This document shows, piece by piece, positions 12,742 through 30,948 of a DNA stretch of 37,142 bases (position 1 is the stretch's first letter; every line of letters begins with the position of its first letter). Under the pieces are notes generated by a model. The model saw only the letters and a program-made list of their open reading frames with translations. It was not told the DNA's origin and made no database searches. The translations under genes and the position numbers were made by a program. The stretch is taken from the sequence record SRR22947727_1523. One strand, 5' to 3'.

Positions 12742-13454
12742 AACAAACAAGCTATGAAGAAATGAAATTAGATATAAACAGCATCGTCCGTAGCCATGAG
12801 GGTCTGGTGCGGCGCATCGCGTTTAAAATGCATGCGAAAGTTTCAAGCTTTATTGAATTAGATGATTTGTTGCAATCCGGCTTGGAAGGCTTGGTTGATG
12901 CAGCGCAAAAATACACCACGGTTGAAGGTTCAAGCTTTGAAAATTATGCGAGCATCCGGATAAAAGGTTCAATGCTCGATTTAATTCGCCGGTCTGGAAA
13001 TTTGAACCGTTCGACGGTTCAGGCCAAACAGATGATCGATGGCAAACGCAACGAGTTGGCCGTTTCATTAGGGCGCACGGCTAAGGATGAAGAAGTTGCC
13101 GCGGCGCTGAACCTATCGATGGAAGAGTTTTATAGTTGGACAAAGCTGTTTGAAGCAAACGTTTCTGAAAGCCTCAGTCAGGCGTATGATGAGTATTCAA
13201 TGGTGTTTGCCGCGCCGACGATTGAACCTGAACGCCTATTAGACAGTCAAAATTTGCGCGTCGAATTGGTAAATGCCCTAAAGATGCTTTCAAAACAGCA
13301 AAGCATGGTGATGCAACTCTATTACGTAGAAGATCTTAACACGTATGAGATCGCCGCCGTTTTGGATTTATCACCGGGCCGGGTGTCTCAAATCAAATCA
13401 GAAGCGTTTAAAGCGCTGCAGTCAAAGCTTCAAAATTATTCGGATCTTCACTAA
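12738..13454 (+). CDS. fliA: Flagellar sigma factor sigma28 FliA
   Basis: LVRRIA, DDLLQSGLEGLVDAAQKY, FENYASIRIKGSMLD.IR, LYYVEDLN..EIAAVLDLSPGRVSQIKS; TTG overlaps the upstream TGA (alternative ATG 12762). Confidence 0.93.
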   Translation: MKQTSYEEMKLDINSIVRSHEGLVRRIAFKMHAKVSSFIELDDLLQSGLEGLVDAAQKYTTVEGSSFENYASIRIKGSMLDLIRRSGNLNRSTVQAKQMIDGKRNELAVSLGRTAKDEEVAAALNLSMEEFYSWTKLFEANVSESLSQAYDEYSMVFAAPTIEPERLLDSQNLRVELVNALKMLSKQQSMVMQLYYVEDLNTYEIAAVLDLSPGRVSQIKSEAFKALQSKLQNYSDLH

Positions 13455-13547
13455 ACCACCGCCGCGCCTGTGCTTAGCCTAGCTTAGGTTTGTTTGGCCC
13501 GCGCGCGCAGTCAGGCTTAGCATATTGCAGATCACTCCTTGCGCCGC

Positions 13548-14420
13548 TTAAGGGTCAATAATAGCGCCATGCACCTGCACAACCTGCGCCGCGCAAGCAT
13601 GGCCTTTTTGCAAAGCCCTCTCTTGGTTTTCACCGCTGAGCTTCGCCCCCAAATACGCGCCATTAAAGCTGTCGCCTGCGGCCGTTGTGTCCACCACGGT
13701 CGGACTGGCCGAGTAGCGGGTTGCAGAGATCCGCTCCCCCAAGGACAGGGGGCCTTTTTCTCCGCGTTTTAGTGCCCCAACGCTGCCATAAGCCGCGAAG
13801 CGTTTTTGCACGGTTTCAAAGTTTTCTTGAAACAGTTCCATTTCATCATCCAGCGAGGGTAAGGTTAGATCACTTATCTCCCAAAAGCTGTTTATCGTCT
13901 TACGTGCCTCTTGCGCATCACCCCAAAGCGCGGGGCGGTAATTGCTGTCAAAGGCAAAGAGCGCATCGCTGGTTTTTAGGAAATTAAGCAGCTCGTGACG
14001 GATATCTGGGGGCAGGATAGCCAGGGTAATTCCTGAGAGATAAAGCGCATCATAGCCATTCAAGGCTGAAAACTCTGCGCCATTGGCCGTTTGAAACAGC
14101 TCCCTTGCCGCAGATTGCGCGCGCCAATAGGTAAAGGCGCGCTCTCCGTTGGGCGAGGTTGAAATTGCATAGAGGCCCGGATGCCGCTTTTGCGATGTTT
14201 CAATTGCCTCTATGCCGATATTTTGCGCGGCGATAAAAGTTTTGATTTGGGTTGAAAAAGGATCGCTGCCAAGGCGCGTAATAAAATCAACTTGCAGCTT
14301 TGGAGCGGCTCTTTTTAAGTATATCGCTGTATTCAATGTATCGCCTGCCACGCCAATGCTTGGGGTGCTGCCGCGAAAGGACAGCTCAATCATGGCTTCA
14401 CCGATACAGGCAATTTTCAT
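13548..14420 (-). CDS. kdgK: 2-dehydro-3-deoxygluconokinase (PfkB family)
   Basis: MKIACIGEAMIEL, AGDTLNTAIYL, LYLSGITLAIL, FDSNYRPALW, VVDTTAAGDSFNGAYL. Start set at ATG 14420, which overlaps the upstream stop. Confidence 0.88.
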   Translation of the reverse strand: MKIACIGEAMIELSFRGSTPSIGVAGDTLNTAIYLKRAAPKLQVDFITRLGSDPFSTQIKTFIAAQNIGIEAIETSQKRHPGLYAISTSPNGERAFTYWRAQSAARELFQTANGAEFSALNGYDALYLSGITLAILPPDIRHELLNFLKTSDALFAFDSNYRPALWGDAQEARKTINSFWEISDLTLPSLDDEMELFQENFETVQKRFAAYGSVGALKRGEKGPLSLGERISATRYSASPTVVDTTAAGDSFNGAYLGAKLSGENQERALQKGHACAAQVVQVHGAIIDP

Positions 14421-15313
14421 TGCGTTTCCTCTTTTAATTTTGCGCGTTTCCAGATGATCAAACCCGAGATGACAACGATAGATGCGCCGGTCAAGGTCCA
14501 ACGGTCAGGGAATTCTGCGAAAACAATATAGCTTTCTATGGTGAGAAAAATCATGAAACTATAGGTATAGGGCATTAAGGTATTCGCGGGGGCCAGCCCA
14601 TGCGCGCGCGTTAATAAACCATGCCCGGCCCAAGCCCAAACCCCAAGCACGCACATCAACACCCATTCGAATAAGGAGCTTGGAGTTGCCCAGTCTAAAA
14701 AAGCTAAGGGCAGCAAGCTGAAGGTGCCCAATGCCCCCATGTAAAATTGCATGGTTTCCGCGGCAACGAGGCCAGAGAGGCGGCGGGTGATGATCGAATA
14801 AAGCGCGAGCGCCACGGCGTTATAACAAGTGAGCAAAGCCGCCCAGTGAAAGCTTTCTCCCAAAGGGCGAATGACGACGAGAACACCGCTAAAGCCTAAG
14901 ATAATCGCAAACCAGCGCCACGGGCCAACGCGCTCACCCAAGAGCGGCCAAGAGAGAAGGCAAACGATTATTGGTGCTGAAAACATAATCGCCGACACCA
15001 CCGTTAAAGACAGATAGCGCAAAACGATAAAATTCAGCGCCGTCGCGCTGACCAATAAGAAGCCTCGAAACAACACCAATCCCAAATGTGGCGTTGCAAA
15101 TCTACTCAGGCTGACGCCGCCCCAAGCGATGGTGCTTAGGCTGATAACGAAATGCGAGGCATAGCGCATAAAGGCCAGTTGAAAGGATCCAAGCCCGGCA
15201 TAGAGCAACCATTTTACCGAGGTATCCACCAAGGAAAAAAGGAAATAGGTCACCAGCATCATAAGAATGCCCAGGCTTGGATTATCCCTGTTTGCCATTG
15301 CGGTCAGCGCCAT
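14417..15313 (-). CDS. DMT/EamA-family permease
   Basis: About 10 hydrophobic helices; LLGERVGPWRW..IILGFSGVLVVIRP signature. Confidence 0.9.
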   Translation of the reverse strand: MALTAMANRDNPSLGILMMLVTYFLFSLVDTSVKWLLYAGLGSFQLAFMRYASHFVISLSTIAWGGVSLSRFATPHLGLVLFRGFLLVSATALNFIVLRYLSLTVVSAIMFSAPIIVCLLSWPLLGERVGPWRWFAIILGFSGVLVVIRPLGESFHWAALLTCYNAVALALYSIITRRLSGLVAAETMQFYMGALGTFSLLPLAFLDWATPSSLFEWVLMCVLGVWAWAGHGLLTRAHGLAPANTLMPYTYSFMIFLTIESYIVFAEFPDRWTLTGASIVVISGLIIWKRAKLKEETQ

Positions 15314-15315
15314 AG

Positions 15316-16203
15316 CTAGCGGGCGAACCGATCGGCATAGAAGTCGACCATTTGACTGACCATATGCTCGCCGCGACCTTCGGCAACGGCCGTATCCAAG
15401 GCGGAAAGGGTGCCTTGCGACATCACGCTGTCAACGCCTGCTGAGTGCGCCATTTGGGTGTAATATCCCACATCTTTGGCAGCATTCTTGATTGAAAACG
15501 CCAATTGGTTGGGATTCTTTTCGACGGCATAGGCTTTGACAAAATCCATCATACCACTGTGCAATGGGCCTGCCGACATGGCTGTATATAGTTTGTCACG
15601 ATCAAGGCCCAGCTGGTCGGCCATGGCAAAGGCTTCTGCCATGGCGTTGGCCACCGTCATCCCGAAAAAATTATTCATCAATTTGATGGAATGGCCATCC
15701 CCTAGATTTCCCAGATGGAATACATTTTCGGCAAGGTTTTTTAAGACGGGCCGCGCTCTTTCATACGCAGCGGTATCGCCCGCTGCCATAATGTTCAATT
15801 GGCCGATCAGGGCATGCTGCGGCGTACGCCCGAGAGGCGCATCTAAATAATAGCCCCCCGCCGCTGCCACCTCTTGGCCCAAGGCCCGCGTACTGGCTGG
15901 TAGTGACGTGCCAAAATCAATCACAATCGCACCTGTTTGCAGGCCAGCAATAACGCCATCCGGGCCACGCATTCTGGCTTCGACGCTGGCGCTTGTATCC
16001 ATACAGAGGAGAATGATATCGCTGGTTTGTGCAAGCGCGCATGCGGTTTCAACCTCATGGGCACCGCGCGCGATTGCGGCCTCAATATTCGGCCGAGATT
16101 TATTGGCGCAGACACTCACTTGATAATCCAAGTCTTGCAATCTGCTGACCATCGCAGATCCCATCAGGCCAAGGCCGATGAACCCAATATTTTCATTTGG
16201 CAT
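15316..16203 (-). CDS. NAD(P)-dependent beta-hydroxyacid dehydrogenase family protein (3-hydroxyisobutyrate DH / tartronate semialdehyde reductase / LtnD family)
   Basis: IGFIGLGLMG, YLDAPLG, IKLMNN catalytic Lys, FSIKNAAKD. Confidence 0.88.
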   Translation of the reverse strand: MPNENIGFIGLGLMGSAMVSRLQDLDYQVSVCANKSRPNIEAAIARGAHEVETACALAQTSDIILLCMDTSASVEARMRGPDGVIAGLQTGAIVIDFGTSLPASTRALGQEVAAAGGYYLDAPLGRTPQHALIGQLNIMAAGDTAAYERARPVLKNLAENVFHLGNLGDGHSIKLMNNFFGMTVANAMAEAFAMADQLGLDRDKLYTAMSAGPLHSGMMDFVKAYAVEKNPNQLAFSIKNAAKDVGYYTQMAHSAGVDSVMSQGTLSALDTAVAEGRGEHMVSQMVDFYADRFAR

Positions 16204-16216
16204 TTTTATTTCTTTC

Positions 16217-17104
16217 TTATTTAATCACGTCAAACGCGCGTTTTTTTAAGCCTTTTTGAATTTCATATATTGAAATTGGCACATCGGGCTGGGGTTGCGG
16301 GATGCGCACGGGAATATCTTTTAGGCGCGGGTTCAGGGTTGGGGTGCCGCAGAGCATGCGGGTGTTGTACTCTTCAATCCCATCCCAGCGCGTCATTGAT
16401 CCCATTAGGGGAAACGCGTCTGCAGCCATCATTTCGTAAAATAAGATGCGCCGGGCCCTCTCTGATGTGTTCAGCGCGGATCCATGCACCATCCGGCCAT
16501 GATGAATTGAGATGGACCCGGCTGGCCCCGTTAGAGGCACAGCATCATTGGCGTTCAAACCATTGTCTTCGGGCAGCATTGCGCCGGCAAATACACCCTC
16601 AACATGATGATCATAAACAGGCCCTTTTTGGCTGCCTGGATAGACCATCAAGGGCCCATTTTCGATTTTCATATCGTCAATTATAACCCCGATGGCCAAA
16701 ATATCGTCATTCGTATGGGGGTAAAACGCATAATCCTGGTGCCATTCCACAGCCGCGCCATATCCTGCTGATTTCATATTCAGCTTACTGGTGTGCAGGC
16801 GCAAATTCGGTCCGATCAAATCTCTTGCTGGGCCCAAAATATGATCAGACAGCATCAGTTCATGAAAAAGTGTGCTGATCAGATGCGGTAGCTTAATCCG
16901 GCGCAAACGTGGCGCGGCGCGGGTATGGCTGTCTTCAAGGTCGAGCCGGTCATTGCTGTGCTCAAGCTCAGCTGCCTCTTCTTCAAAACGGAATATTTCG
17001 GCGCGTATTTTAGTAAGCCAAACGTCGGGAATTTGATTTTCAATTACCAAATATCCGTTCTTTTCGTAAAACCTTATTTGCTGGGATGTCAGTTGCTCAG
17101 GCAT
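16217..17104 (-). CDS. PhyH-family Fe(II)/2-oxoglutarate dioxygenase (1)
   Basis: FYEKNGYLVI, EWHQD (HxD), ENGPLMVYPGS, distal His in VHGS..N and Arg in RRIL. Confidence 0.88.
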   Translation of the reverse strand: MPEQLTSQQIRFYEKNGYLVIENQIPDVWLTKIRAEIFRFEEEAAELEHSNDRLDLEDSHTRAAPRLRRIKLPHLISTLFHELMLSDHILGPARDLIGPNLRLHTSKLNMKSAGYGAAVEWHQDYAFYPHTNDDILAIGVIIDDMKIENGPLMVYPGSQKGPVYDHHVEGVFAGAMLPEDNGLNANDAVPLTGPAGSISIHHGRMVHGSALNTSERARRILFYEMMAADAFPLMGSMTRWDGIEEYNTRMLCGTPTLNPRLKDIPVRIPQPQPDVPISIYEIQKGLKKRAFDVIK

Positions 17105-17152
17105 GGTATCAGGCTCCGGTGTGATTGGCTTATTTTTTTCGCAATAGCTCGT

Positions 17153-18151
17153 TCAAATCGGTTCAATTTGTTGGGCCAAAAGGGTTTCCAATTCCAGGGT
17201 ATTTGCCAATGTTTTGGTTGCATCAAAGACCGAGATCAGCGGTTCGGCTTTGTCGGCCATCACATCCAGAAAGTGCTGCAATTGTTGCTGCAGCGGCACC
17301 GCCGTTGCAATTTTCAATTTGCGCGGTGTCGGCGTCTCTGACCAATCTGCCGCTCCGCCCCATTGGGTCATTGAGGGAAATGAAATCCCACCCTCTGTTC
17401 CCGTAATCCACAGCATATCCTGGCGGCTTGTTGCAATATTGGGGTTCTCTCCCGTGCCGGCCTCAAACCCCCATGGGCTGGGGGCGGTGTCGGCAAAACT
17501 AATGCTTGCTGTCATTCCGGTTTCGAACAAAATAGCCGCGGCGCCGCTTTCCACGCGGGCTTGATTGCGGATTTGAGAGGACCCAAAGCCGGTTATTTTG
17601 GCAATGTCGCCAAAAATAAACCGCAGCAGGTCTAAATCATGAACGATATTGATCATCACTGGACTGCCTTCGGTGCTACGCCAATTTTGTTCAAAATAAG
17701 CATCTGGTTTGCGCATTGCCCAAATCATGCTGGCCGTCACGGCGGTGCCAATTTTTTTGTCTTTAACAAGGGATTTAAGCGCTTGAACGCTGGGATGATA
17801 GCGTCGGTGATGTCCCACCAGGCTTGCGATTCCGCTTTCTTGGACCACCTGCGACAATTGTTTGGCTTGCTCTAAACTGGCGGTGACGGGCTTTTCGATA
17901 AGAATATCCCAGCCTTTGCGCGCTGCATCGATACCATTCTCGCAGTGCAAATTTGTGGGCGTGGCGATGATTACCCCATCCACGGGGGCTGTGACCTGCG
18001 ATATATCTGAAAAATAGCTGGCATTGGCGTCTCGATATAGGCTTTGGTTGGGTTCGACCACACCGACAAGGTTACACCCCGCATGGGCCTTGATCGCTTG
18101 GGCGTGCCGCGCGCCGATCAGCCCAGCACCAAGCACCAAAAGCTGCTTCAC
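17153..18151 (-). CDS. Gfo/Idh/MocA-family oxidoreductase
   Basis: VLGAGLIG..H, VIIATPT.LH, ILIEKP, VGHHRRY, HDLDL; GTG start overlaps the upstream stop. Confidence 0.9.
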   Translation of the reverse strand: MKQLLVLGAGLIGARHAQAIKAHAGCNLVGVVEPNQSLYRDANASYFSDISQVTAPVDGVIIATPTNLHCENGIDAARKGWDILIEKPVTASLEQAKQLSQVVQESGIASLVGHHRRYHPSVQALKSLVKDKKIGTAVTASMIWAMRKPDAYFEQNWRSTEGSPVMINIVHDLDLLRFIFGDIAKITGFGSSQIRNQARVESGAAAILFETGMTASISFADTAPSPWGFEAGTGENPNIATSRQDMLWITGTEGGISFPSMTQWGGAADWSETPTPRKLKIATAVPLQQQLQHFLDVMADKAEPLISVFDATKTLANTLELETLLAQQIEPI

Positions 18152-19656
18152 ATTACTGCTCCTATTTGCCAGGGAACGAATTCGAAATCGCCCAATCCCT
18201 GCTGTTCAGATTTGCTGGTTTTGCCGCTGGCGACGTCTAAAAACATCTGATAAATTTCCCGGCCCTTTTCTTCCACAGAACATCCGCCGTTTAAAATACT
18301 GCCGGCGTCGATATCCATATCCTCGGACATGCGCGCGGCCATTTCCGAATTGGTAGCGATTTTGATCGTTGGGGCTGGTTTGGAGCCAAAGGCCGATCCG
18401 CGCCCAGTCGTGAAACAGACGAGGGTGCAGCCGCCTGCTATTTGCCCCGTTACGCTGGCTGGATCATAGCCCGGGCTGTCCATAAAGGTGAATCCAGATG
18501 CAGTGATCGGCTCGGCATATTTATAAACTCCGGTAAGCGGTGTGGTGCCGCCTTTGGCGGCCGCGCCAAGCGATTTTTCCAAAATCGTTGTGAGTCCGCC
18601 TTTTTTATTTCCGGGGCTTGGGTTGTTGTCCATATTGCCCTTGTTCCGAGCGGTATAATCTTCCCACCAGCGGATCAGTTTTATCAGTTTTTCGCCGGTT
18701 TCTTGGTTCACCGCCCGCCGCGTGAGCAAATGCTCAGCCCCGTAAATTTCGGGCGTTTCTGCCAAAACGCCAGTGCCACCTTGGGCGGCGAGTAAATCGC
18801 AGGCATATCCCAAAGCGGGATTTGCCGTAATGCCGGACCATGCATCAGATCCGCCACATTGCAGCGCAACTTTCAAGGCGCCAGCAGGGCAGGGGCTGCG
18901 GGTATTTTTATTGGCGAGCGGCAGCATGGCGTGCACTTTTTCGATGCCGATTTCAACGGTGCGCTTTAAGCCGGCAACAGATTGAATATTCATTGTTTGA
19001 AACAGTGGCCCTTGTTTGAGGCCATAAGCTTCGAGCAACCAATCAAGTTGGTTCATTTCACAGCCCAATCCGACCATCAGAACCCCAGCGTGGTTCGGGT
19101 GGCGCGCATAGCCCCACATGACGCGTTGCAAGGCTTCAAAACCGTCGCCATCCCCTGCCATTCCGCAGCCGGTGCCATGAACGAACGCGGCCACACCGTC
19201 AACATTCGGGTAGTCTGCCAAGACCTCAGGGGTGAATGCGTTTGCGATCATCCGCGCTGCGGTTGCAGAACAATTTACCGAGGTGACGATGGCGATATAA
19301 TTGCGGGTGCCAATGCTGCCATTTTCGCGGCGAAAGCCCATAAAACTGTCTTGCTGCTCTGATGAAATTAAATCAACAGGCCGCAAATCGGTGCTGAACT
19401 CATACGAGGCTTCGGTGTTTCTGAAAGACACATTATGATCATGCACATGCGCGCCGGCAGAGATATCTGTTGAGGCATAGCCTATCAATTGTGCGTATTT
19501 GCGGATTTCTCCCCCAGAAGGAATCGCTGCGGTGGCAATTTTATGGCCAGAGGGAATGGGTTGAACGGTTTTGGTCGTTTCAACAATATGCCCTGCAGGC
19601 AGGCGGCCCGCGGCTGTAACAACATTATCCGCACAATCAAGCCGAATGAAATCCAT
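18148..19656 (-). CDS. UxaA/GarD-family (altronate/galactarate-type) acid-sugar dehydratase with SAF domain
   Basis: DNVV..IPSGHKIA..I.KYAQLIG SAF domain; GTRNYI..SVNCSATAA, HGTGCG, LQCGGSD..SGITANPALG, NPSPGNKKGGLTTILEKSLG, FTTGRGS. Confidence 0.92.
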   Translation of the reverse strand: MDFIRLDCADNVVTAAGRLPAGHIVETTKTVQPIPSGHKIATAAIPSGGEIRKYAQLIGYASTDISAGAHVHDHNVSFRNTEASYEFSTDLRPVDLISSEQQDSFMGFRRENGSIGTRNYIAIVTSVNCSATAARMIANAFTPEVLADYPNVDGVAAFVHGTGCGMAGDGDGFEALQRVMWGYARHPNHAGVLMVGLGCEMNQLDWLLEAYGLKQGPLFQTMNIQSVAGLKRTVEIGIEKVHAMLPLANKNTRSPCPAGALKVALQCGGSDAWSGITANPALGYACDLLAAQGGTGVLAETPEIYGAEHLLTRRAVNQETGEKLIKLIRWWEDYTARNKGNMDNNPSPGNKKGGLTTILEKSLGAAAKGGTTPLTGVYKYAEPITASGFTFMDSPGYDPASVTGQIAGGCTLVCFTTGRGSAFGSKPAPTIKIATNSEMAARMSEDMDIDAGSILNGGCSVEEKGREIYQMFLDVASGKTSKSEQQGLGDFEFVPWQIGAVM

Positions 19657-19665
19657 AATCTACCT

Positions 19666-20613
19666 TTACGCGCAAAACGGGGCATCCGACTGCCACCGAT
19701 GGATCGGGATATGCTCCCCGTTTGAAAGTTTCCTGCGGGCTGTTTCCCATAAACCGCGCCATTCTTTCCAATCCTGTAAAACGCGTTCGGGTTGGCTTTG
19801 ACTGTAAGCGATAAAATCTGGGAAATGTGATCGGCCCGTCGGTTGGCCGGTTACGTTATAGCGCAGATCGAAAGACCATCTAAAGCCATTCGTATGATTG
19901 GGCAAGGAGGCATGCGGTATAAGTGGATGTAGAATAACCAGGCTGCCCGCCTTCACTGGTAAGGCTTTGGCATCCGCCTCGTTGATCCAGCCATCGGCGA
20001 TGGCGGTTTGGGTTTTCGGGCAATGGGGAAGCATTTTTTTATGCTTGCCTGGAATAACCTTTAGGCAACCATTGTCTTGGGTGGCATCCGTGATCGCAAC
20101 CCAAACCGTTATCATATCCGTCTGATCAGCTTCCTCGAGTGCGACGCCGCGATCTTGGTGCCAATCTGTTTTGGTAATATGGGCCCTGATCTCACCCTCG
20201 GCCAAGCGCTTGCTGGGCGGTTTGATCCGCACATGCTGAATCGGATTTGACGTGATTTCAGGTCCGATCAGATCTTCAACGATTTTTAAAACCCGTTGAT
20301 GTGTGATCATAGCAAAGACAGCAGGCCCAAAATGCATGGGCGTATCGGGGAAAATTTGATCCCCTGGCAAGCTGATATCCAGAGGTTGAAACCAATCGCA
20401 GCCGGCTTCGTAAGACAGCGCCAGTTTTTGCCAGAAATCTAAGGTTTCGGGCGCAGTTTTAACGCGCCCGTCTTTGAACCATTTGTGATAGAGCCCCTCT
20501 AAGAGCTGCGCATATTCGCTTTGAATATGCGCCAACTCTTGAGAGGTTAGAACATTTGGAACAACCAGATACCCATTTTCTTTAAATGCGTTTTGTTGAT
20601 CTGGGCTCAACAT
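19666..20613 (-). CDS. PhyH-family Fe(II)/2-oxoglutarate dioxygenase (2)
   Basis: FKENGYLVV, DWHQD, ITVWVAITDATQDNGCLKVIPG, PHASLPN..FRWSFDLRY. Confidence 0.9.
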   Translation of the reverse strand: MLSPDQQNAFKENGYLVVPNVLTSQELAHIQSEYAQLLEGLYHKWFKDGRVKTAPETLDFWQKLALSYEAGCDWFQPLDISLPGDQIFPDTPMHFGPAVFAMITHQRVLKIVEDLIGPEITSNPIQHVRIKPPSKRLAEGEIRAHITKTDWHQDRGVALEEADQTDMITVWVAITDATQDNGCLKVIPGKHKKMLPHCPKTQTAIADGWINEADAKALPVKAGSLVILHPLIPHASLPNHTNGFRWSFDLRYNVTGQPTGRSHFPDFIAYSQSQPERVLQDWKEWRGLWETARRKLSNGEHIPIHRWQSDAPFCA

Positions 20614-20628
20614 ATGCCGCTGCCTTTC

Positions 20629-22293
20629 CTATAACAAAACTGAAACAATCGGTGGCCAGATCAGCAAGACTGACAAGGCTATCAGCTGGATGCCGATAAA
20701 GGGTAAAAACCCTTTGAAAATATCGGTCAGCGAAATATGCGCAGGCGCCACTGATTTGAGGTAAAATGCGGCTGGCCCAAAGGGTGGTGATAAGAAGCTA
20801 ACCTGCATATTCATACAGAATAATACACCAAACCAAGTTGCCACATGGCGCGGATTCAATTCACCAAAAATGCCAATTTCTTGAATAGGCAGGCGCAAAA
20901 CGATCGGCAAAAAGACCGGGATGATCAGCAAAACAATCCCAACCCAATCCATAAAAGCGCCCATGATCAAGAGAATGAACATCATAGAAAGAAGAACCAG
21001 CATCGTGGGCATTTCGGAGCCAACGATCAGATCTGCCACAAAACGCGGTCCACCCGCGATCGTGTAGGCCCCTGCAAGCGCTGCGGCGCCGATGGTCACC
21101 CAAATGATGGTTCCGGTTGATTTCATCGTGCGCATTAGGCTGTCCCATACCAGCTCAAAATTGGCTTCGCCGCGTAATATGGCGATGATCAAAACCGCAA
21201 TCGCGCCCATGCCTGCCGCTTCTGTTATTCCTGTAATGCCACCGTAAATTGATCCAAGAACCACGCCGATCACGACCATAGGCGCAACCAACCCTTTGCC
21301 CATTTCCCAGGCCAATGCAGAGCGCTCGCGTCCAAAGCCAAAAAACGCGATCAGCACAGAGGCAATGATATAGCCGGCAAACCATGGAAGGTAATCCGCA
21401 GTTCCTAAGAAGATGGGCTCTATGGCGTCATCCAAGGGTGCGTTTTGACCCGTTACCGTGAAGAACAAGGCCCGCAAGAATAATGCGGTTACAGCGCCAA
21501 AAAAGACAACATTCAAAAACGCGATGAACAGTTTCAATTTGTCATACCCCTGCGGCTCGCCTTCAGCAGGCTTGGGCAACGGGGCATCTTCTGGGCGGAT
21601 TTGGGTTCGAATAACGATGTAGATGATGATGAAGCTTGCCAACATGAAACCGGGTAAAAACGCTGCGGTAAACAGCGCTTTGATCGAGGTCTCTGTGATC
21701 AACCCATACATAATCAAAACGATCGAGGGGGGGATCATCGTGCCCAAAGATCCCGAGGCGCAGATTGTTCCGATTGCGAGGTTTTGATTATAGCCAAGCC
21801 GGAGCATTTGCGGCAATGCAATCAATCCCAGCAGTACCACCTCCCCACCAATAATGCCCGACATTGCGGCCATAATCACGGCCATGATCGAGGTCACGAT
21901 TGCAATGCCGCCACGGGTTCCGTTCAGCCAAACATTCAAAGAGCTATACATATCTTTGGCAATGCCCGAACGTTCCAATAGCGAGGCCATGAAGATGAAC
22001 AGGGGTACCGAAATCAAAACATAGCTGGTCATAACGCCGTAAATTTTTTGCTGCAGGATATTCAGGGCTCCCGCCCCCGGCCTCCCGGTAAGCGTACATC
22101 GTACGCCGGGATTTGCCTCAGTATACCAGTCAGGGCACCCGAAGCTGAGCGGATTCGACAAAAGGGCAGGTTCAAACTTCATAACCAAAACCAAAACGGC
22201 TAAAATAGCCGAGGCCAAGCCCAGAGGCATGCCAATGGCCAGTAAAATAAACAGGCCTATTAACAAGACCAGAGAAATAGTTCCGATATCCAT
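20629..22293 (-). CDS. dctM: TRAP transporter large permease DctM
   Basis: SVPLFIFMA..LERSG, MAAMSG, ASGSLGTMIPPSIVLIMYG, TEAA, SFLSPPFG. Confidence 0.93.
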   Translation of the reverse strand: MDIGTISLVLLIGLFILLAIGMPLGLASAILAVLVLVMKFEPALLSNPLSFGCPDWYTEANPGVRCTLTGRPGAGALNILQQKIYGVMTSYVLISVPLFIFMASLLERSGIAKDMYSSLNVWLNGTRGGIAIVTSIMAVIMAAMSGIIGGEVVLLGLIALPQMLRLGYNQNLAIGTICASGSLGTMIPPSIVLIMYGLITETSIKALFTAAFLPGFMLASFIIIYIVIRTQIRPEDAPLPKPAEGEPQGYDKLKLFIAFLNVVFFGAVTALFLRALFFTVTGQNAPLDDAIEPIFLGTADYLPWFAGYIIASVLIAFFGFGRERSALAWEMGKGLVAPMVVIGVVLGSIYGGITGITEAAGMGAIAVLIIAILRGEANFELVWDSLMRTMKSTGTIIWVTIGAAALAGAYTIAGGPRFVADLIVGSEMPTMLVLLSMMFILLIMGAFMDWVGIVLLIIPVFLPIVLRLPIQEIGIFGELNPRHVATWFGVLFCMNMQVSFLSPPFGPAAFYLKSVAPAHISLTDIFKGFLPFIGIQLIALSVLLIWPPIVSVLL

Positions 22294-23135
22294 CAGGTTG
22301 ATCCCACGTTGCGTTTCAGTGTTTCAATTTCATCTTCTATATCGTCTGTTGCTGAATGCTTTATTGGTTCAAGCTTCCAGTCAGAAAACAGGTTAAACAC
22401 AGATTGCAATGCCACTAAAGACACCATGACCAAAATAAATGGCTTTAAGGTTGCGGGTATCGGAGGGTCAAAGGCGGTGCCAAATGTTTCCCAGCTATAA
22501 AACTTTTTGAAAGATTCCCCGTACCCACCGTAACATAAAAAGAAAGCAAAAATAACGATGAGACTGGTTGATATCGTGTCGCAGACACGCTGTAGAGCGC
22601 GCGGTAAAACGTCGTAAAGCAAGAAAATTCTGATATGGCTGCGCTGCTGCATCGCGTAAAGCCCTGCGCATAAAAACACAAAGCTGGCCACCCATAATGA
22701 CAGCTCATTGGCCCATAATGTAGGCGCTTCCACCACGTAGCGCATGAACACTTCGTAGATCATCACACTGGTCAGCACGACGATTTGCACCATCGTGATG
22801 CGACCAATGAAAACAGCGATCCGATCCACAGGGCGCCAATGTTCGAATTCCATGCGCGCCCGTTCAACCGTGAAGAAGCCAAAAACCAGCAAAATAGGAA
22901 GCGCAATCAGCGTGAGCCAATCTACAATATCGGCGAACCCGCCAAATAAACCCGGCAGGTTCGGCGTCACATCATTGCGGATCATTTGAGCAGAGAGCTG
23001 GTCAAACAGCGATTTATCTTCTGGTGTGAAAAAATCCAGGATGAAATAGGGGAAGTGCCAGCATTGCCAGGCAAAACAAATGATAAAGGCGGCTGGTATA
23101 TACCATTCCTTGTGGTTAACCGTGGTTACCTGCAT
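22293..23135 (-). CDS. dctQ: TRAP transporter small permease DctQ with N-terminal extension
   Basis: YEVFMRY...PTLWANELS, HIRIFLLYD, WETFGTAFDPP; immediately upstream of dctM. Confidence 0.88.
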   Translation of the reverse strand: MQVTTVNHKEWYIPAAFIICFAWQCWHFPYFILDFFTPEDKSLFDQLSAQMIRNDVTPNLPGLFGGFADIVDWLTLIALPILLVFGFFTVERARMEFEHWRPVDRIAVFIGRITMVQIVVLTSVMIYEVFMRYVVEAPTLWANELSLWVASFVFLCAGLYAMQQRSHIRIFLLYDVLPRALQRVCDTISTSLIVIFAFFLCYGGYGESFKKFYSWETFGTAFDPPIPATLKPFILVMVSLVALQSVFNLFSDWKLEPIKHSATDDIEDEIETLKRNVGST

Positions 23136-23175
23136 GCGTTTTCTCCCCTCGCGCCTCTTGGTGAGGCTACGTTAA

Positions 23176-24339
23176 TTATAGTGCAAAGTATTGCAAAAAG
23201 TCTCTGTCTGGTGTGATCCCAAGGCCTGGGCCCTCTGGTAGCGCAATATAGCCATTGGTTCGGGCAACTTGCGCTTGAATTTCTAACGGCGTTTCCAACA
23301 ATTCATCGCGGAATTTATTATCTGTTGTGTCAAATTCCAACATTGGCTCCCAAGGGTTCATCCCGCCGGGCAAATCAGGCATGGACGCGAGTAAGTGCAT
23401 ATTGGTTGCAACCGCAACCGCCGAACCCCAGACATGATTGACCACCGGCGTGAAATGCGCGTGGCACAGCGCTAATACCCGCAAATATTCAGATATGCCC
23501 CCCAGGGCACAAACTTCCGGCTGGGCTATATCCAGCCCGCGCGATTCAAGCAGGCTGCGCCAGCCCCATCTGTTGAATTCGGCTTCACCGCCTGAAATGT
23601 TCACGTTTAGGCCCGCGCGCAATTCGCGATAACCTTGCAGGTCCTCCGGCGCGATCGGTTCTTCAAACCAATAGGCGTCAAGATCTTCCAAGGCGCGCCC
23701 TACTTCAAAAGCATCGCTTGTTGTATAGCAGTGATTTGCATCCACCATGAACCTAAAATCATCGCCAATGCCGCGCCGCACTGCTTCCGCCAGTTTTATA
23801 TCTGCACGGGGCCCCAACCCCACTTTCATTTTTGTTGCAACGAAGCCCATATCTTTGATCGCGCGCGCTTCTTCTTTAAAGCGGACCGTCAAATCTTCAA
23901 GTGGCTCTGGGCGCAGCATCATGCCGTATCCATAGACGGGAATGTGTTGGCGATGCGCGCCGCCGATCAGTTGATAAAGCGGTAAGTTCGCGACTTTTCC
24001 GGCAATATCCCACAGCGCGATATCAACCCCAGATAAGGCCTGCATCGGCATGCCCTTTTGTCCGTGGTCGCGCATCAGATTATATGTTTTGTGCCACAAG
24101 ACATCCCGATCAAGCGGAGAGTGGCCTAAGATGATGGGTTGAATCACATCTTGCACGATGGTGCGGTTCGCAAGCGCAATATTGCCCGGGCCAAAGCATT
24201 CCCCCCAACCCGTAAGACCTTCGTCGGTTTCGACTTCGATCAGATGCGCGGTGCGTTTGTTATAAAACTGTTGAGAATAGCCCAGCGTCTGCGGCATGTC
24301 ATATTGCAGAATATGGCTGGTGATTTTGGTTATTTCCAT
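23176..24339 (-). CDS. Mandelate racemase/MLE enolase-superfamily enzyme, galactarolactone cycloisomerase (Gci)-like
   Basis: GWGECFGP, RDHGQKG..ALSGVDIALWDI.GK, KMK, DANH, WFEEP, GGE, HVWG, NPWEPMLEFD; resembles Agrobacterium Gci from memory. ATG 24339 preferred over TTG 24351. Confidence 0.75.
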   Translation of the reverse strand: MEITKITSHILQYDMPQTLGYSQQFYNKRTAHLIEVETDEGLTGWGECFGPGNIALANRTIVQDVIQPIILGHSPLDRDVLWHKTYNLMRDHGQKGMPMQALSGVDIALWDIAGKVANLPLYQLIGGAHRQHIPVYGYGMMLRPEPLEDLTVRFKEEARAIKDMGFVATKMKVGLGPRADIKLAEAVRRGIGDDFRFMVDANHCYTTSDAFEVGRALEDLDAYWFEEPIAPEDLQGYRELRAGLNVNISGGEAEFNRWGWRSLLESRGLDIAQPEVCALGGISEYLRVLALCHAHFTPVVNHVWGSAVAVATNMHLLASMPDLPGGMNPWEPMLEFDTTDNKFRDELLETPLEIQAQVARTNGYIALPEGPGLGITPDRDFLQYFAL

Positions 24340-24390
24340 TGGGAAGCCCAACTCACCTTTTTTCTTATTTTTTAGGTTTCGGCCTGTTCG

Positions 24391-24420
24391 GATAGCGGGG
24401 CCCCGCAGGGCCCCGTTACC
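24391..24420 (-). terminator. GC-rich stem-loop downstream of dctP (mRNA stabiliser or weak terminator)
   Basis: Minus strand GGTAACGGGGCCC-TGCG-GGGCCCCGCTATC: 8-bp perfect GC stem plus extension, about 24 nt after the dctP stop; no U-tract. Confidence 0.6.
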
Positions 24421-24443
24421 GGTTAATTATCTGTCATGAAGAC

Positions 24444-25454
24444 TTAGTCTACCAGACCCAGCTCTTTCAGATATGTCACGTGGCTCGCAAGCAGAGCTTT
24501 CGCTTCTGGAGTAGTTGCGAAATCGCTCCATGCGGCTTGTGCCGCGGCGCGGAAGCTGGCCCGGTCTGCAGGAGACCAGTCATGCAAGGTTACACCTTCA
24601 CCGCGCAGTTTGGAGGCTGCTGCAGTCATGCCTTTACCCACCTGCATTGAGGTTTGGAAAGCCAGTGACTCCATCGCAACATTCATGATGCGGCGGTGCG
24701 CTTCGGGCATGCCATCCCAAACGGCTTTGTTACAGGCCAAGTGGTCAGATGGCATTGAGTGGAAGCCAGGATAGTTTGTGTGCTTCACGATGTCATACAG
24801 GCCCAAGCTAACGTTTGTGGCGATGTTTGATGCATCCGCTCCATCAATGATACCAGTTTCCAAAGCGGTGAAGATTTCGGTGAAATCCATCACGATGGGT
24901 GAGGCGCCAAGATTGTCAAAAATCATAGTGGCCATGCCTGGAGGTGACCGGAATTTCCAGTTTTTGAAATCTTCTGCGTTACGGATTGGTTTTGAAGAGG
25001 ACAGGCTTTCCATGCCTGGGATCCACCAGCCGATGAACTGCATGTCATATTTGTTGTAAAGCTCTTGTGCTGCCTCGTAACCACCACCGTTATAGAGCCA
25101 GCTATACTGATCCCATGGTGAGTCGTATCCGCCCATGATGTCGCCAACGAATTGGAATGCAGGGTTCTTACCTGTTTGGTAAGCACCACCTGTCATGTCG
25201 CAATCTAAAACACCTGTGGCTGCGGCGTCGAATGTTTCCACAGAAGACACCACTGAAGATGAATAGTACATCTCGATCGAGATCTCACCGCCAGACATTG
25301 TTTGCACATTGTCGATAAATTGCGCCGCAAGCTTACCGTTAGGGCTTTCTTCAGAGAAATGCGTTTGAATGCGCAGGTTGGTTGCTGCGGATGCAGTTGT
25401 TGCAGCCATGGCTGCGATACCGGCAGCATAGGCTACCTTTTTTATTAGTTTCAT
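24444..25454 (-). CDS. dctP: TRAP transporter substrate-binding protein DctP
   Basis: Signal peptide; MSGGEISIE, WKFRSP (carboxylate-binding Arg), EIFTALETGIIDG; RBS GGGAGG. Confidence 0.92.
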   Translation of the reverse strand: MKLIKKVAYAAGIAAMAATTASAATNLRIQTHFSEESPNGKLAAQFIDNVQTMSGGEISIEMYYSSSVVSSVETFDAAATGVLDCDMTGGAYQTGKNPAFQFVGDIMGGYDSPWDQYSWLYNGGGYEAAQELYNKYDMQFIGWWIPGMESLSSSKPIRNAEDFKNWKFRSPPGMATMIFDNLGASPIVMDFTEIFTALETGIIDGADASNIATNVSLGLYDIVKHTNYPGFHSMPSDHLACNKAVWDGMPEAHRRIMNVAMESLAFQTSMQVGKGMTAAASKLRGEGVTLHDWSPADRASFRAAAQAAWSDFATTPEAKALLASHVTYLKELGLVD

Positions 25455-25569
25455 GATGCCCTCCCAGACATTTATGGCCGAATTATCCAGAGCCGAAGGT
25501 GCTCTGGCCTTGAGTCAACACAAGAAAGCCTAGAGGGCTTAATCTGTTTCTTCAAGTTTTTATTTAATT

Positions 25570-25587
25570 TCTTGAAAATTTCGTGAT
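25570..25587. promoter_or_regulatory. Candidate operator in the divergent dctP/gntR promoter
   Basis: TCTTGAAAATTTTCGTGA with perfect core palindrome GAAAATTTTC (25574-25583) in an AT-rich intergenic region. Confidence 0.35.
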
Positions 25588-25641
25588 TTTGATAAAATAA
25601 TAATATTATACCATGATTAGAACACAGTAAGAGAGCCTGGC

Positions 25642-26310
25642 ATGGATGATGAAAGCGATATTTACGAAGGCCTACGTCTGCGGGTAACCTCAGGTGGGTT
25701 GACGCCGAATACGAAATTAAAACCCAGCGTTTTGCGCCATGATTATAATTGTTCGGCCAGCACCATTCGAGAGGCTTTATTCAGATTATCCACCGTTGGC
25801 TTGGTGTCTTTTCAAGAGCAGCGTGGCTTTCGCGTTCCAATTCCAACCGATCAAGCGCAACATGAGCTAACGCATCTGCGTATTTTGCTTGAATGCGAGG
25901 GGGCTTGTTTGTCGATTCGTCAGGGCGGTATTGATTGGGAATCTCGGCTGACGGCGGCGCATCATAAATTATCGCATATCGAAAAAAGAGTGCGTGGAAG
26001 CGCTGACCATATGCCGCTTTTCATTCTTTGGGCAAAAGCCGAGCAAGCGTTTCATGAGACTCTCATTTCAGATTGCGGATCAGATGTGCTCAAAGCCACG
26101 CACGCGATGATCTATCAGCGATTTCGTCAGCAAGTTTTTAATTCAGATAAGAAATTTGTCTTCGTGGTCGAAAATATTGAGCAGCATCAGGGAATTTTAG
26201 ATGCCGCTCTGATGCGAGATGAGGCGTTGATCCGGTCTCGTATTTATAGTCACTTAGAAAGAAACTTGGTGTTTGACATGCCGCCCGAGCTGCCCAAGCT
26301 TCCATATTAA
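25642..26310 (+). CDS. GntR-family regulator (FadR subfamily, FCD domain)
   Basis: wHTH S.STIREAL.RL...GLV...QRGFRV; LR.LLE; FH..L; EQHQGILDA; divergent from the TRAP operon. Confidence 0.92.
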   Translation: MDDESDIYEGLRLRVTSGGLTPNTKLKPSVLRHDYNCSASTIREALFRLSTVGLVSFQEQRGFRVPIPTDQAQHELTHLRILLECEGACLSIRQGGIDWESRLTAAHHKLSHIEKRVRGSADHMPLFILWAKAEQAFHETLISDCGSDVLKATHAMIYQRFRQQVFNSDKKFVFVVENIEQHQGILDAALMRDEALIRSRIYSHLERNLVFDMPPELPKLPY

Positions 26311-26322
26311 CAAGCTTCCATT

Positions 26323-27318
26323 TTAATCAGTGCTGGCTTTGCTGGCGTTGGGCAAATCATCCTGGATATAGGTCGCGATGATCTCATCAAAACTCGCTTC
26401 TGCTTGAAAGCCCAGCGCACGCGCACGTTTTGCGGTAAAATTTCGAGGCCAGGAGGAAACGATATTAGTGATCGTGTCATCAGGTTGCCGCTCAATCAAT
26501 TTAATGACCGATTGACCTGCAGCGCGGCGCAGCGCCTCTATTTGCTCTTCCACTGTGCAACTTACGCCTGGCAGGTTGAGCGCGCGCCGATTTTCCAAAA
26601 GCCCGCTGTCTAACGTTGCGGCATGCCGTAAAAACCCGGCTGCTGCGCGCGGAGAAGCGTGCCAATGACGCACGCTTTCATCCACGGGTAAAATTGCTTT
26701 TTGGCCATTTAAAGGCTCGCGTATGATCCCTGAAAAAAACGATGAGGCGGCCAGATTGGCTTTGCCTGGGCGCACGCATATCGTTGGTAAGCGCAAGGAT
26801 ATCCCGTCTACAAACCCTTTTCTGCTAAAATCTGACAGCAGCAATTCACAGGAAGCTTTTTGAGCTCCATAGCTGGTTTGAGGGGCGCTTAAAAACGTAT
26901 CGTCAATCTGTTCCGGAAACGGGCCGCCAAACACTGCAATCGAGGAGGTGAAAATAATTTTTGGAACAAAGGCTTGGTTGGACTCGATGTGAAGCGCCTT
27001 CAGCGCTTCTAGATAATGCCACATTGTGAACATATTGACCTGCCAGCCAGCCTCGAAATTGCTTTCAGCTTCGCCCGAAACGATCGACGCCAGATGAAAG
27101 ACGATATTGGGGCGCAATCGGGCAAGCATGGTAATATTTTGCGCATCGGTTAAAGAGCCGGTTATACAGCGCAGACGCCCGTCTTGCTTGAGGGGGAAGG
27201 CCATATCAAACAACGTAATGTCCAGCGCCTTATGGCCGGGCAAGCCACTGGCCAAAAGGTGATTTGCCAGCTTTTGCCCTACCATACCGCCGCCACCAAG
27301 GATCAAGATTTTTGTCAT
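26323..27318 (-). CDS. Extended SDR, D-erythronate dehydrogenase (DenD)-like
   Basis: GGGGMVGQKL, FHLASIVSGEAE.NF..G..VN, FTSSIAVFG, SYGAQK, RLPTICVRPGKANLAASSFFSGIIREPL. Confidence 0.8.
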   Translation of the reverse strand: MTKILILGGGGMVGQKLANHLLASGLPGHKALDITLFDMAFPLKQDGRLRCITGSLTDAQNITMLARLRPNIVFHLASIVSGEAESNFEAGWQVNMFTMWHYLEALKALHIESNQAFVPKIIFTSSIAVFGGPFPEQIDDTFLSAPQTSYGAQKASCELLLSDFSRKGFVDGISLRLPTICVRPGKANLAASSFFSGIIREPLNGQKAILPVDESVRHWHASPRAAAGFLRHAATLDSGLLENRRALNLPGVSCTVEEQIEALRRAAGQSVIKLIERQPDDTITNIVSSWPRNFTAKRARALGFQAEASFDEIIATYIQDDLPNASKASTD

Positions 27319-29140: not shown

Positions 29141-29144
29141 ACTT

Positions 29145-30938: not shown

Positions 30939-30948
30939 GAGAAAGAGA

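Follow-up and report, generated by a model that had tools for sequence, protein, structure and literature searches.

Several Fe(II)- and 2-oxoglutarate (2OG)-dependent oxygenases of the TauD/TfdA family are known to unmask a blocked substrate, among them TauD (taurine), AtsK (alkyl sulfate esters), TfdA (the ether 2,4-dichlorophenoxyacetate, 2,4-D) and the sulfoquinovose dioxygenase. To our knowledge, no oxygenase takes part in the classical routes for hexuronates, L-galactonate, anhydrogalactose or aldarates, and we know of no described sugar-acid pathway that uses one of the 2OG type. Here we describe two oxygenases of this type, PhyH_A and PhyH_B of the PhyH family, which are encoded in sequence record SRR22947727_1523 (37,142 nt; this whole stretch is referred to as the window) by a minus-strand operon of eleven closely spaced genes running from position 25454 to 13548. 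Both are part of this sugar-acid operon, which is fed by a TRAP (tripartite ATP-independent periplasmic) transporter and expressed in seawater communities. We propose, with a probability of roughly 45%, that each hydroxylates a blocked carbon (probably C6) of an L-galacto-type hexonate, and that the resulting aldehyde is then reduced by HIBADH1, a reductase of the same operon; any single member of this class of blocked-carbon substrates is, taken by itself, an unlikely candidate at best. The enzyme family and the style of chemistry are known, whereas the pathway role and the substrate are undescribed.

The proposed reaction resembles those of TauD, AtsK and TfdA in that a carbon bearing a heteroatom would be hydroxylated to give an aldehyde and a lost group, in a catabolic setting and beside a binding-protein-dependent transporter. 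It differs in that those enzymes belong to another Pfam family, PhyH_A and PhyH_B matching PF05721 only, and in that six-carbon sugar acids are proposed here as the substrates. In kanamycin biosynthesis, a PhyH-family dioxygenase (KanJ) turns a sugar C-NH2 into a ketone, upon which an NADPH-dependent reductase (KanK) acts. By description only, this pair resembles PhyH_A-HIBADH1 and PhyH_B-HIBADH1, a PhyH-type oxygenase with a dedicated, hydroxyl-restoring reductase, although it is biosynthetic, takes an aminoglycoside and has a reductase of another family. The P450 demethylase of porphyran degraders, a haem enzyme with redox partners that acts on the neutral sugar 6-O-methyl-D-galactose, is likewise an example of the oxidative, intracellular removal of a red-algal sugar decoration; the enzymes of the present operon, however, are of the non-haem Fe/2OG type, lie in a TRAP (acid) operon and are coupled to a reductase.

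Among the routes for red-algal sugars, that of Vibrio sp. EJY3 for 3,6-anhydro-L-galactose (AHG; AHG dehydrogenase plus cycloisomerase) is represented in the window by a likely orthologue of its cycloisomerase, while the D-enantiomer route of Zobellia (DauA-D) is echoed in the operon by the DauB/Gci-like protein Enolase1. Both routes end, as this operon would, in a 2-keto-3-deoxy-hexonate and a PfkB kinase. As far as the accessible parts of the sources describe them, they use neither an oxygenase nor a TRAP transporter (PMC5698469, PMC11219438). The window differs from the AHG route in that no AHG dehydrogenase, agarase or carrageenase was found among its scanned open reading frames (ORFs); indeed, the 32 ORFs scanned, which do not extend to the rest of the genome, include no aldehyde dehydrogenase or glycoside hydrolase family at all. 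The Ashwell (UxaC, UxaB, UxaA, KdgK) and L-galactonate (LgoD, UxaB/F, UxaA) pathways share with the locus a UxaA-family dehydratase and a KdgK-like kinase in the operon and an LgoD-like zinc-dependent alcohol dehydrogenase (Zn-ADH) in the window, but the operon's dehydratase shares no more than 36% of its residues with UxaA of E. coli, and these classical routes do without an oxygenase.

Both oxygenases match Pfam PF05721 (gathering score 22 bits), PhyH_A with 118.4 bits (E 6.8e-34) and PhyH_B with 101 bits (E 1.5e-28); PhyH is the only Pfam family matched by either at E ≤ 0.001, and no match to the TauD family was obtained. They share 25% identity (E 3e-08), and their translations contain the motif residues W121-H122-Q123-D124, H207 and R218 in PhyH_A and W151-H152-Q153-D154, H234 and R245 in PhyH_B, which are invariant in 52 aligned relatives of the former and 21 of the latter. 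In human PhyH, an arginine approximately 11 residues after the distal histidine binds the C5 carboxylate of 2OG, and an arginine stands 11 residues past the distal histidine in both proteins. AlphaFold2 produced confident models (predicted local distance difference test scores of 92.0 for PhyH_A and 87.5 for PhyH_B), which Foldseek matched to GriE, PHYHD1, PhyH, EctD and SyrB2 in the PDB with E-values of 1e-19 to 1e-13. Judged from sequence and modelled fold, PhyH_A and PhyH_B are intact 2OG-dependent oxygenases of the PhyH family. An earlier prediction, made from the letters of this DNA (the original prediction), had described two divergent dioxygenases with intact HQD...H...R motifs that bracket the UxaA-family and Gfo/Idh/MocA (GFO) genes inside a dctP-to-kdgK operon; the motifs and the divergence are borne out by the translations, and the ORFs lie exactly as it had them.

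The solved structures nearest to PhyH_A are those of GriE (leucine 5-hydroxylase), a proline hydroxylase (H11), PHYHD1 and EctD. GriE, H11 and EctD, matched at E-values of about 1e-19 with template modelling scores of 0.64-0.70 and 20-27% identity, are closest to it in fold and sequence and share its iron and 2OG ligands, but the identity is low and the context of the PhyH genes is sugar-acid catabolism rather than amino-acid or osmolyte metabolism. Nearest to PhyH_B are SyrB2, PHYHD1, ThoJ and PhyH, with the epimerase SnoN among its structural neighbours. Neither oxygenase reaches a curated equivalog cut-off of NCBIfam. Neither is an ectoine hydroxylase, ectoine being a substrate that the original prediction had named as a case that would speak against it: the EctD model TIGR02408 gives 78.9 bits for PhyH_A and 30.2 bits for PhyH_B against a cut-off of 336.5. 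In SyrB2-type halogenases the carboxylate ligand is replaced by alanine or glycine (HxA/G); PhyH_B keeps Asp154 and is therefore built as a hydroxylase, and it scores only 51.6 bits with the halogenase model (TIGR01762, cut-off 226.3). The methylphosphonate/phosphonate hydroxylase model (NF052437, 44.8 bits, cut-off 500) and that for the 2OG-Fe(II) oxygenase of sporadic carbohydrate clusters (TIGR04324, 23.7 bits, cut-off 150) were likewise rejected for PhyH_B. This protein has 4080 relatives at E ≤ 1e-10, whose source names are generic, as are the ESM Atlas neighbours of both oxygenases. Among the PhyH_B relatives, C183 is invariant, C198 and C314 are present in at least 90% and the C-terminus carries an S-D-A-P-x-C-A tail; no counterpart of these cysteines or of this tail was seen in PhyH_A.

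Pfam and NCBIfam assignments give the minus-strand order as DctP, Enolase1, DctQ, DctM, PhyH_B, the UxaA-like dehydratase, GFO, PhyH_A, HIBADH1, EamA and the KdgK-like kinase (Table 1). The gaps in operon order are 92, 40, -1, 15, 9, -4, 48, 13 and 2 bp, those next to the oxygenases measuring 15 (DctM/PhyH_B), 9 (PhyH_B/UxaA-like), 48 (GFO/PhyH_A) and 13 bp (PhyH_A/HIBADH1), while the last two genes overlap. As listed, the kinase begins with a TTG codon that places 85 nt of it within EamA, so that its true start is probably later. DctM and DctQ are unusually long, far beyond their Pfam models, and since residues 11-547 of DctM cover profile positions 1-411, this subunit carries an insertion.

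Table 1. Features of the sugar-acid operon and of other parts of the window
Feature	Position	Strand	Basis or remark
DctP, TRAP solute-binding protein	24444..25454	-	Operon's first gene; Pfam DctP, E 3.6e-46
Enolase1, enolase-superfamily cycloisomerase/dehydratase	23176..24351	-	Between dctP and dctQ; Pfam MR_MLE
DctQ, TRAP membrane subunit, 280 aa	22293-23135	-	Pfam DctQ
DctM, TRAP membrane subunit, 554 aa	20629-22293	-	Pfam DctM
PhyH_B, Fe(II)/2OG oxygenase, 315 aa	19666..20613	-	Pfam PF05721, 101 bits
UxaA/GarD-family sugar-acid dehydratase (UxaA-like), third subfamily	18148..19656	-	Pfam SAF + GD_AH_second + GD_AH_C
GFO, Gfo/Idh/MocA oxidoreductase	17153..18151	-	Variable operon member; Pfam, NCBIfam
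PhyH_A, Fe(II)/2OG oxygenase, 295 aa	16217..17104	-	Pfam PF05721, 118.4 bits
HIBADH1, HIBADH-family (beta-hydroxyacid/semialdehyde) reductase	15316..16203	-	Pfam NAD_binding_2 + NAD_binding_11
EamA/DMT-family membrane transporter	14417..15313	-	Pfam EamA; kept after HIBADH1 in other loci
KdgK-like PfkB kinase	13548..14501	-	Operon's last gene; NF052444, 254.4 bits
GntR/FCD regulator, divergent	25642..26310	+	Pfam GntR + FCD; position conserved across loci
D-erythronate dehydrogenase (DenD) and second HIBADH gene	26323-28202		NCBIfam DenD model above cut-off
SDR, IlvD-type dehydratase, FAH hydrolase and 2-hydroxyacid dehydrogenase	28361-32750		Grouped genes
Likely 3,6-anhydro-L-galactonate cycloisomerase	32763-33869	+	5xd7 match, E 1.2e-151, 508 bits, residues 5-364
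KduD/gluconate-5-dehydrogenase-like SDR	33873-34640	-	NCBIfam
L-idonate-5-dehydrogenase-like, LgoD-like Zn-ADH	34738-35766	+	NCBIfam
FlgK hook-associated protein and flagellin-N-domain protein	3972-8552		Part of flagellar cluster

The stretch occupied by the operon is present in many marine metatranscriptomes from several studies. When contigs from four RNA-labelled runs of three studies were mapped on positions 13400-25700, they covered 29 to 30 of the 30 bins, and among the 32 contig pieces listed (of 242) several bridge the junctions of the oxygenase genes: UxaA-like/PhyH_B (18463-19737 and 18794-20784), PhyH_B/DctM (19739-20820 and 20184-23168) and HIBADH1/PhyH_A (15454-16522, 15865-16324 and 16178-16717). 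The GFO/UxaA-like junction is bridged by contig 17667-18588, and that between GFO and PhyH_A by none of the 32 listed pieces, which does not in itself indicate a break. The bridging contigs are consistent with co-transcription, of which they are not proof. Contig depth is far higher over dctP than elsewhere in the operon in two of the runs (X2 and X8); such depth cannot rank genes, and no conclusion was drawn from it. A scan for promoters and terminators gave counts near those of shuffled sequence (14 versus 15.0; 26 versus 17.6) and does not define the transcription unit.

The closest loci belong to bacteria of the Roseobacter group, and the operon with its oxygenases occurs in many Rhodobacteraceae and in other Proteobacteria (related loci and genomes are given below by L- and G-numbers, G001 being the nearest genome). 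Full-length orthologues of PhyH_A, 62-99% identical to it, were found in six of 41 related genomes, with one further copy in three pieces; nine of the 41 carry PhyH_B, and twelve the UxaA-like dehydratase (at least 69% identity). The copy in pieces (G015:C11:33418-34304, loci L008/L020 of a genome 63% complete) is split into three frames of 75-81% identity, stands where the TRAP genes are absent and looks like a decaying copy.

Gene order around the oxygenases was examined in two samples. The PhyH_A sample comprises the best 80 of 601 confirmed loci, 62 of them with a PhyH_A of at least 57% identity and 37 of these 62 with flanks of at least 8 kb on either side, and its neighbour calls rest on identity thresholds chosen in this analysis. 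Near PhyH_A in the 37 well-flanked loci lie TRAP genes (22), the UxaA-like dehydratase (20), HIBADH1 (19) and PhyH_B (14); Enolase1 is near only 7 of the 62. Wherever PhyH_A sits in the operon, it is immediately upstream of a HIBADH gene; the two are divergently paired in L037, and in L016 a 44%-identical PhyH_A paralogue lies beside another HIBADH gene. For PhyH_B, the best 80 of 404 confirmed loci in metagenomes were taken, from which 8 copies were removed for an identity of at least 97%. Here, DctM is directly upstream in 33 of the 49 loci with sufficient flank, and directly downstream stands the UxaA-like gene in 31 of 44 loci and HIBADH1 in three. The HIBADH reductase is the most constant enzymatic partner of the oxygenases. 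Minimal operons reduce to this partnership, with TRAP-PhyH_B-HIBADH1(-EamA) in L156, L163, L171 and L172 and TRAP-PhyH_A-HIBADH1 in L060.

Operon variants occur with both oxygenases, with PhyH_B only (L107, L109, L135, L147, L148, L170, L176, L177 and L183), with PhyH_A only (L028, L032, L045, L046, L058 and L063) and with neither (L106, from a genome 70% complete, DctM-UxaA-GFO-HIBADH1-x-KdgK). The oxygenases are therefore optional additions to a core of TRAP, dehydratase, HIBADH1, EamA and KdgK, and since either can occur alone, they probably take different substrates or decorations. Such modular presence fits accessory "unmasking" enzymes. More distantly, metagenome-assembled genomes of Burkholderiales and Rhodospirillaceae combine a PhyH_A-like gene (49% identity) with TRAP genes and another, divergent PhyH. 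In L090, L091, L096 and L088 this other PhyH is of a third type, about 30% identical to PhyH_A and PhyH_B; the two PhyH genes of L090 and L091 are separated by one for an SMP-30 lactonase, and HpcH aldolases and an FAH domain lie near the pair in L096. ORF picking is unreliable in loci of high GC content, and L094 and L099 fall outside the domain scan.

The association is not strict: 13 of the 37 well-flanked PhyH_A loci have no operon gene nearby. Such loci would fit a substrate unrelated to sugar acids, for instance an amino-acid-like osmolyte or another small carboxylate taken up by the same TRAP system, in which case the operon would be a patchwork of two pathways. Among characterised proteins, those nearest to PhyH_A act on leucine, proline and ectoine, which would agree with this, as would the lactate and 2-oxo acids that DctP's named solved relatives bind; the island also handles several acids, as the neighbouring genes for D-erythronate dehydrogenase and further small-acid enzymes show. 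We nevertheless regard it as very unlikely, as the orders DctM-PhyH_B-UxaA and PhyH_A-HIBADH1 are fixed across genera, the oxygenases stay in the company of sugar-acid genes in the operon variants, the annotated loci show no conserved aminotransferase, deaminase or CoA ligase, and the ectoine hydroxylase model is far below its cut-off. Furthermore, three of five genomes checked with a "free-standing" PhyH_A carry a HIBADH1 orthologue elsewhere, two of these in a TRAP cluster: cycloisomerase-DctPQM-PhyH_B-GFO-like-HIBADH1-EamA in Labrenzia sp. DG1229 and DctPQM-UxaA-HIBADH1-EamA in the second. The free-standing orthologues have no partner in common among the 119 of 136 candidate ORFs scanned at 11 loci. 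As regards the original prediction, its placement of the dioxygenases in the operon is upheld by the bridging contigs and by co-conservation, and the co-occurrence analysis that it had suggested returned the two fixed gene orders; this co-conservation is not strict, given the 13 free-standing loci.

The only obvious uptake systems in the window are EamA and the TRAP system, which takes acids. The best solved relative of DctP is 4pe3 (E 8.8e-59), followed by 2zzv ("ABC transporter, solute-binding protein"); a text search of the literature on the code 4PE3 returned unrelated papers only. The identity of the dehydratase is 36% with UxaA of E. coli and 37% with GarD, and it reaches 373 bits with TIGR03248 (cut-off 731); being equidistant from both, it is unlikely to be a plain orthologue of either, and its substrate is not readable from homology. 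The KdgK-like protein, at 254.4 bits, is below the cut-off of 400 for 2-dehydro-3-deoxygluconokinase (NF052444) and is, by its sequence, a PfkB kinase of the type that phosphorylates 2-keto-3-deoxygluconate (KDG). For HIBADH1, the best NCBIfam match is tartronate semialdehyde reductase (154.7 bits, cut-off 397), and at 29% identity to E. coli GarR it was rejected as an orthologue of that enzyme; it also matches the sulfolactaldehyde reductase model below cut-off (133.6 bits). HIBADH enzymes typically interconvert the aldehydes ("semialdehydes") and primary alcohols of carboxylates, acting mostly on aldehydes rather than ketones. In the accessible part of one report, HIBADH-type enzymes reduce the uronate-type aldehyde DEH (4-deoxy-L-erythro-5-hexoseuloseuronate) to KDG (PMC7874173). 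The tight pairing of oxygenase and HIBADH argues for a carbonyl-forming oxidation over the simple hydroxylation of an O-methyl group.

The L-galacto context is provided by two cycloisomerases. Enolase1 has effectively equal best PDB matches in 5olc (E 4.1e-86) and 4ggb/4hpn (E 3.8e-85), and 5olc is described as Zobellia DauB, a 3,6-anhydro-D-galactonate cycloisomerase, and 4ggb as the Agrobacterium D-galactaro-1,4-lactone cycloisomerase (PMC5698469, in the part available). A DauB/Gci-like enzyme is encoded inside the operon itself. The second cycloisomerase, 12 kb away in the window, forms a module with a short-chain dehydrogenase/reductase (SDR) and a Zn-ADH; it matches the Vibrio cycloisomerase over its full length and is likely a 3,6-anhydro-L-galactonate cycloisomerase. 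This triad recurs in L107, L109 and L061. In L061 and L109 all three of its genes share a strand with the TRAP genes, as does the cycloisomerase alone in L101, and at these three loci the cycloisomerase and the TRAP genes are contiguous; in Labrenzia the cycloisomerase directly precedes dctP. Hexuronate genes also adjoin the operon in three other genera: in L012 and L107 UxaC is accompanied by a gene of the mannitol dehydrogenase family, and in L043 by UxuA. UxaC and UxaB lie outside the window; the nearest genome does carry UxaC, at a distance of about 1.5 Mb from the operon.

By stereochemical reasoning, L-galactonate, L-fuconate, D-altronate and 3,6-anhydro-L-galactonate have the same configuration at C2-C4. 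We take the island to degrade algal hexonates of the L-galacto type as far as KDG, with the Zn-ADH/SDR pair as its putative C5-epimerising module, which would match a route known from the agar literature. [quoted passage not shown] FucD, according to an excerpt of another report, takes L-fuconate, L-galactonate, D-arabinonate and D-altronate (PMC13406643). The conversion of 2-keto-3-deoxy-L-galactonate (L-KDGal) to KDG is, however, called unresolved in the accessible portion of a 2024 review (PMC11219438), and the cycloisomerase/Zn-ADH/SDR triad is a candidate for this step. The guess, made in the original prediction, that the substrates are O-methylated or ether-bridged galactose derivatives of red-algal galactans has thus gained support from homology, through the cycloisomerase in the window, the DauB/Gci-like enzyme in the operon and the co-stranded TRAP genes of L061, L109 and L101, with the qualification that the HIBADH pairing argues against simple O-methyl hydroxylation. 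Taken as a whole, the interpretation given in the original prediction is supported in part.

The C5 epimerisation itself could be the task of an oxygenase. A carbinol C-H, such as that at C5 of L-KDGal, would be oxidised to a ketone, which HIBADH1 or GFO would reduce to KDG, so that the oxygenase would replace, irreversibly and driven by O2, the NAD-dependent Zn-ADH/SDR pair. Minimal operons of TRAP, one PhyH and HIBADH1 beside a cycloisomerase (L156, L101) and the epimerase SnoN among the structural neighbours of PhyH_B would suit such a scheme. It is the more improbable, and in our view hardly to be expected, in that the Zn-ADH/SDR pair is also present in the window and in L107, L109 and L061, where the oxygenase would be redundant, and in that HIBADH enzymes mostly reduce aldehydes, not ketones.

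The proposal of a blocked carbon accounts for these features as follows. The core of TRAP, UxaA-like dehydratase, HIBADH, EamA and KdgK, together with the cycloisomerase/Zn-ADH/SDR module, would convert L-galacto hexonates (candidates being 3,6-anhydro-L-galactonate, L-galactonate and their relatives) to KDG and then to KDPG (2-keto-3-deoxy-6-phosphogluconate). The oxygenases would be accessory entry enzymes that hydroxylate, by Fe(IV)-oxo chemistry, a C-H on a carbon with a heteroatom substituent, likeliest C6, which may be blocked by the ether of a 3,6-anhydro bridge, by a sulfate ester, by a sulfonate group or by O-methylation. The hydroxylated carbon would collapse to an aldehyde, with loss of the blocking group or opening of the ring, to give a compound of the hexuronate or 4-deoxy-5-keto-uronate type; HIBADH1 would reduce the aldehyde to a free hexonate or KDG-type acid, and the dehydratase, the C5-epimerising oxidoreductase pair and KdgK would finish the route. 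PhyH_B may act right after import, ahead of the dehydratase, and PhyH_A just ahead of the reductase. C6 hydroxylation of 3,6-anhydro-L-galactonate would thereby yield D-galacturonate and, on reduction, L-galactonate, while a keto-deoxy acid would yield a 4-deoxy-5-keto-uronate and, on reduction, L-KDGal or KDG.

Oxidative opening of the 3,6-anhydro ring by PhyH_A, PhyH_B or both is a rather unlikely special case, and we group with it, at the same low estimate, the closely related oxidative removal of the 6-sulfate from galactonate-6-sulfate, a desulfation without a sulfatase. A C6-hydroxylated 3,6-anhydro-galactonate is the furanose lactol of galacturonate, so that the ring would open in one O2-dependent step. 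With regard to sulfatases, a gene for the formylglycine-generating (sulfatase-maturing) enzyme adjoins the cycloisomerase module at L107:19-954, and the nearest genome has only 3 sulfatase-family matches.

A sulfonate at C6 would lead to the oxygenolytic desulfonation of sulfoquinovose-derived acids, in which 6-deoxy-6-sulfogluconate or a sulfonate akin to it enters through the TRAP system, dehydration is followed by C6 hydroxylation to sulfite and DEH, HIBADH1 turns DEH into KDG, and EamA exports the sulfite. Fe/2OG-dependent cleavage of sulfoquinovose is known from a TauD-type enzyme, and the gene order PhyH_A-HIBADH1-EamA-KdgK suits the logic of an oxygenase followed by an aldehyde reductase. 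HIBADH1 resembles sulfolactaldehyde reductase, albeit below cut-off as given above; in L030, a close PhyH_A orthologue adjoins an ABC transporter with an NMT1/TauA-type binding protein; and HIBADH-type DEH reductases exist, according to the part of the source available (PMC7874173). Yet the annotated loci have no conserved gene for a sulfoquinovosidase, a sulfite dehydrogenase or a TauE-type exporter, what recurs in the neighbourhood is anhydrogalactonate cycloisomerase and hexuronate genes rather than those of sulfoglycolysis, and both oxygenases are of the PhyH and not the TauD type, all of which makes desulfonation quite unlikely. A sulfolactate-type scheme, with an oxygenase forming tartronate semialdehyde for a GarR-like reductase, was rejected, the conserved neighbours being six-carbon sugar-acid genes.

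Alternatively, the oxygenases may carry out the plain hydroxylation of 6-deoxy acids, without a leaving group, at the terminal methyl of L-fuconate, 2-keto-3-deoxy-L-fuconate or another such acid. The products, L-galactonate or L-KDGal, would then pass to the UxaA-like dehydratase, the C5-epimerising oxidoreductases and KdgK. GriE, the best structural match of PhyH_A, is a methyl hydroxylase, and the FAH hydrolase, SDR and IlvD-type dehydratase of the window are typical of 6-deoxy-hexonate or pentonate routes. As far as their available parts go, the literature describes a dual L-fuconate/L-galactonate TRAP system and loci with lgoD, uxaA and uxaB (PMC5507952), as well as enzymes that accept L-fuconate, L-galactonate, D-arabinonate and D-altronate alike (PMC13406643). 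We consider this reading doubtful, as it leaves the tightly coupled HIBADH reductase without a role, as an oxygen-independent diketo-hydrolase route for 6-deoxy acids is apparently encoded next door, and as neither of the two enolase-type proteins has an L-fuconate dehydratase (FucD-type) among its solved relatives. The set next door consists of the SDR, the IlvD-type dehydratase, the FAH hydrolase, which scores 436.5 bits with the 2,4-didehydro-3-deoxy-L-rhamnonate hydrolase model (cut-off 500), and a 2-hydroxyacid dehydrogenase, and looks from its sequences like a diketo-hydrolase route for pentonates or 6-deoxy-hexonates.

Several observations weigh against the proposal that the pair removes a blocking group from C6. 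No substrate can be read from the oxygenase sequences, and the nearest solved relatives of PhyH_A (GriE, proline hydroxylase and EctD, at about 25% identity) hydroxylate free amino acids; as GriE hydroxylates a methyl group, it would suit a plain 6-deoxy-acid hydroxylation equally well. The named solved relatives of DctP bind small 2-hydroxy or 2-oxo acids (lactate, 7e9y; ketoacid, 7ug8). HIBADH1 is present in the oxygenase-free L106 and hence has a role independent of the oxygenases. PhyH_A is free-standing in the 13 loci mentioned above. As the cycloisomerases of the window open the anhydro ring without O2, its oxidative opening would be redundant for the plain anhydro acid. No gene handling sulfite, sulfate or formaldehyde is conserved in the annotated loci. 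Finally, the assembled contigs of the RNA runs may include DNA carry-over, and a single transcript cannot be proven from them.

Elsewhere in the window, the D-erythronate dehydrogenase gene next to the regulator exceeds the cut-off of its model (366.7 versus 325 bits) and adjoins a second HIBADH gene, which is tartronate-semialdehyde/L-threonate-dehydrogenase-like; this pair is kept beside GntR in many loci, but the window encodes no tetronate kinase, isomerase or decarboxylase. At the other end, a flagellar cluster with a FliA-type sigma factor abuts the sugar-acid operon, with an FlgK hook-associated protein of 1526 aa that carries a Flagellin_IN motif in its middle and is followed by a 562-aa flagellin-N-domain protein.

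A full-text literature search, outside which supplements and subscription papers fall, returned nothing on these enzymes and nothing that connects PhyH or 2OG oxygenases with sugar acids or TRAP systems, with anhydrogalactonate or sulfolactate, or with Roseobacter. Roseobacters are among the sea's most abundant consumers of algal carbon, and the operon is common in them. If the pair indeed strips a blocking group, it would represent a new enzymatic solution to the decorated monomers of marine polysaccharides, through which organisms with few sulfatases and no agarases could use such monomers. Should ring opening prove true, the signature sugar of agar or carrageenan would be turned into a hexuronate in one O2-dependent step, with HIBADH, the UxaA-like enzyme and KdgK linking red-algal galactan catabolism to the hexuronate/L-galactonate pathway. 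The removal of a blocking group would also be a type of reaction new to the PhyH family.

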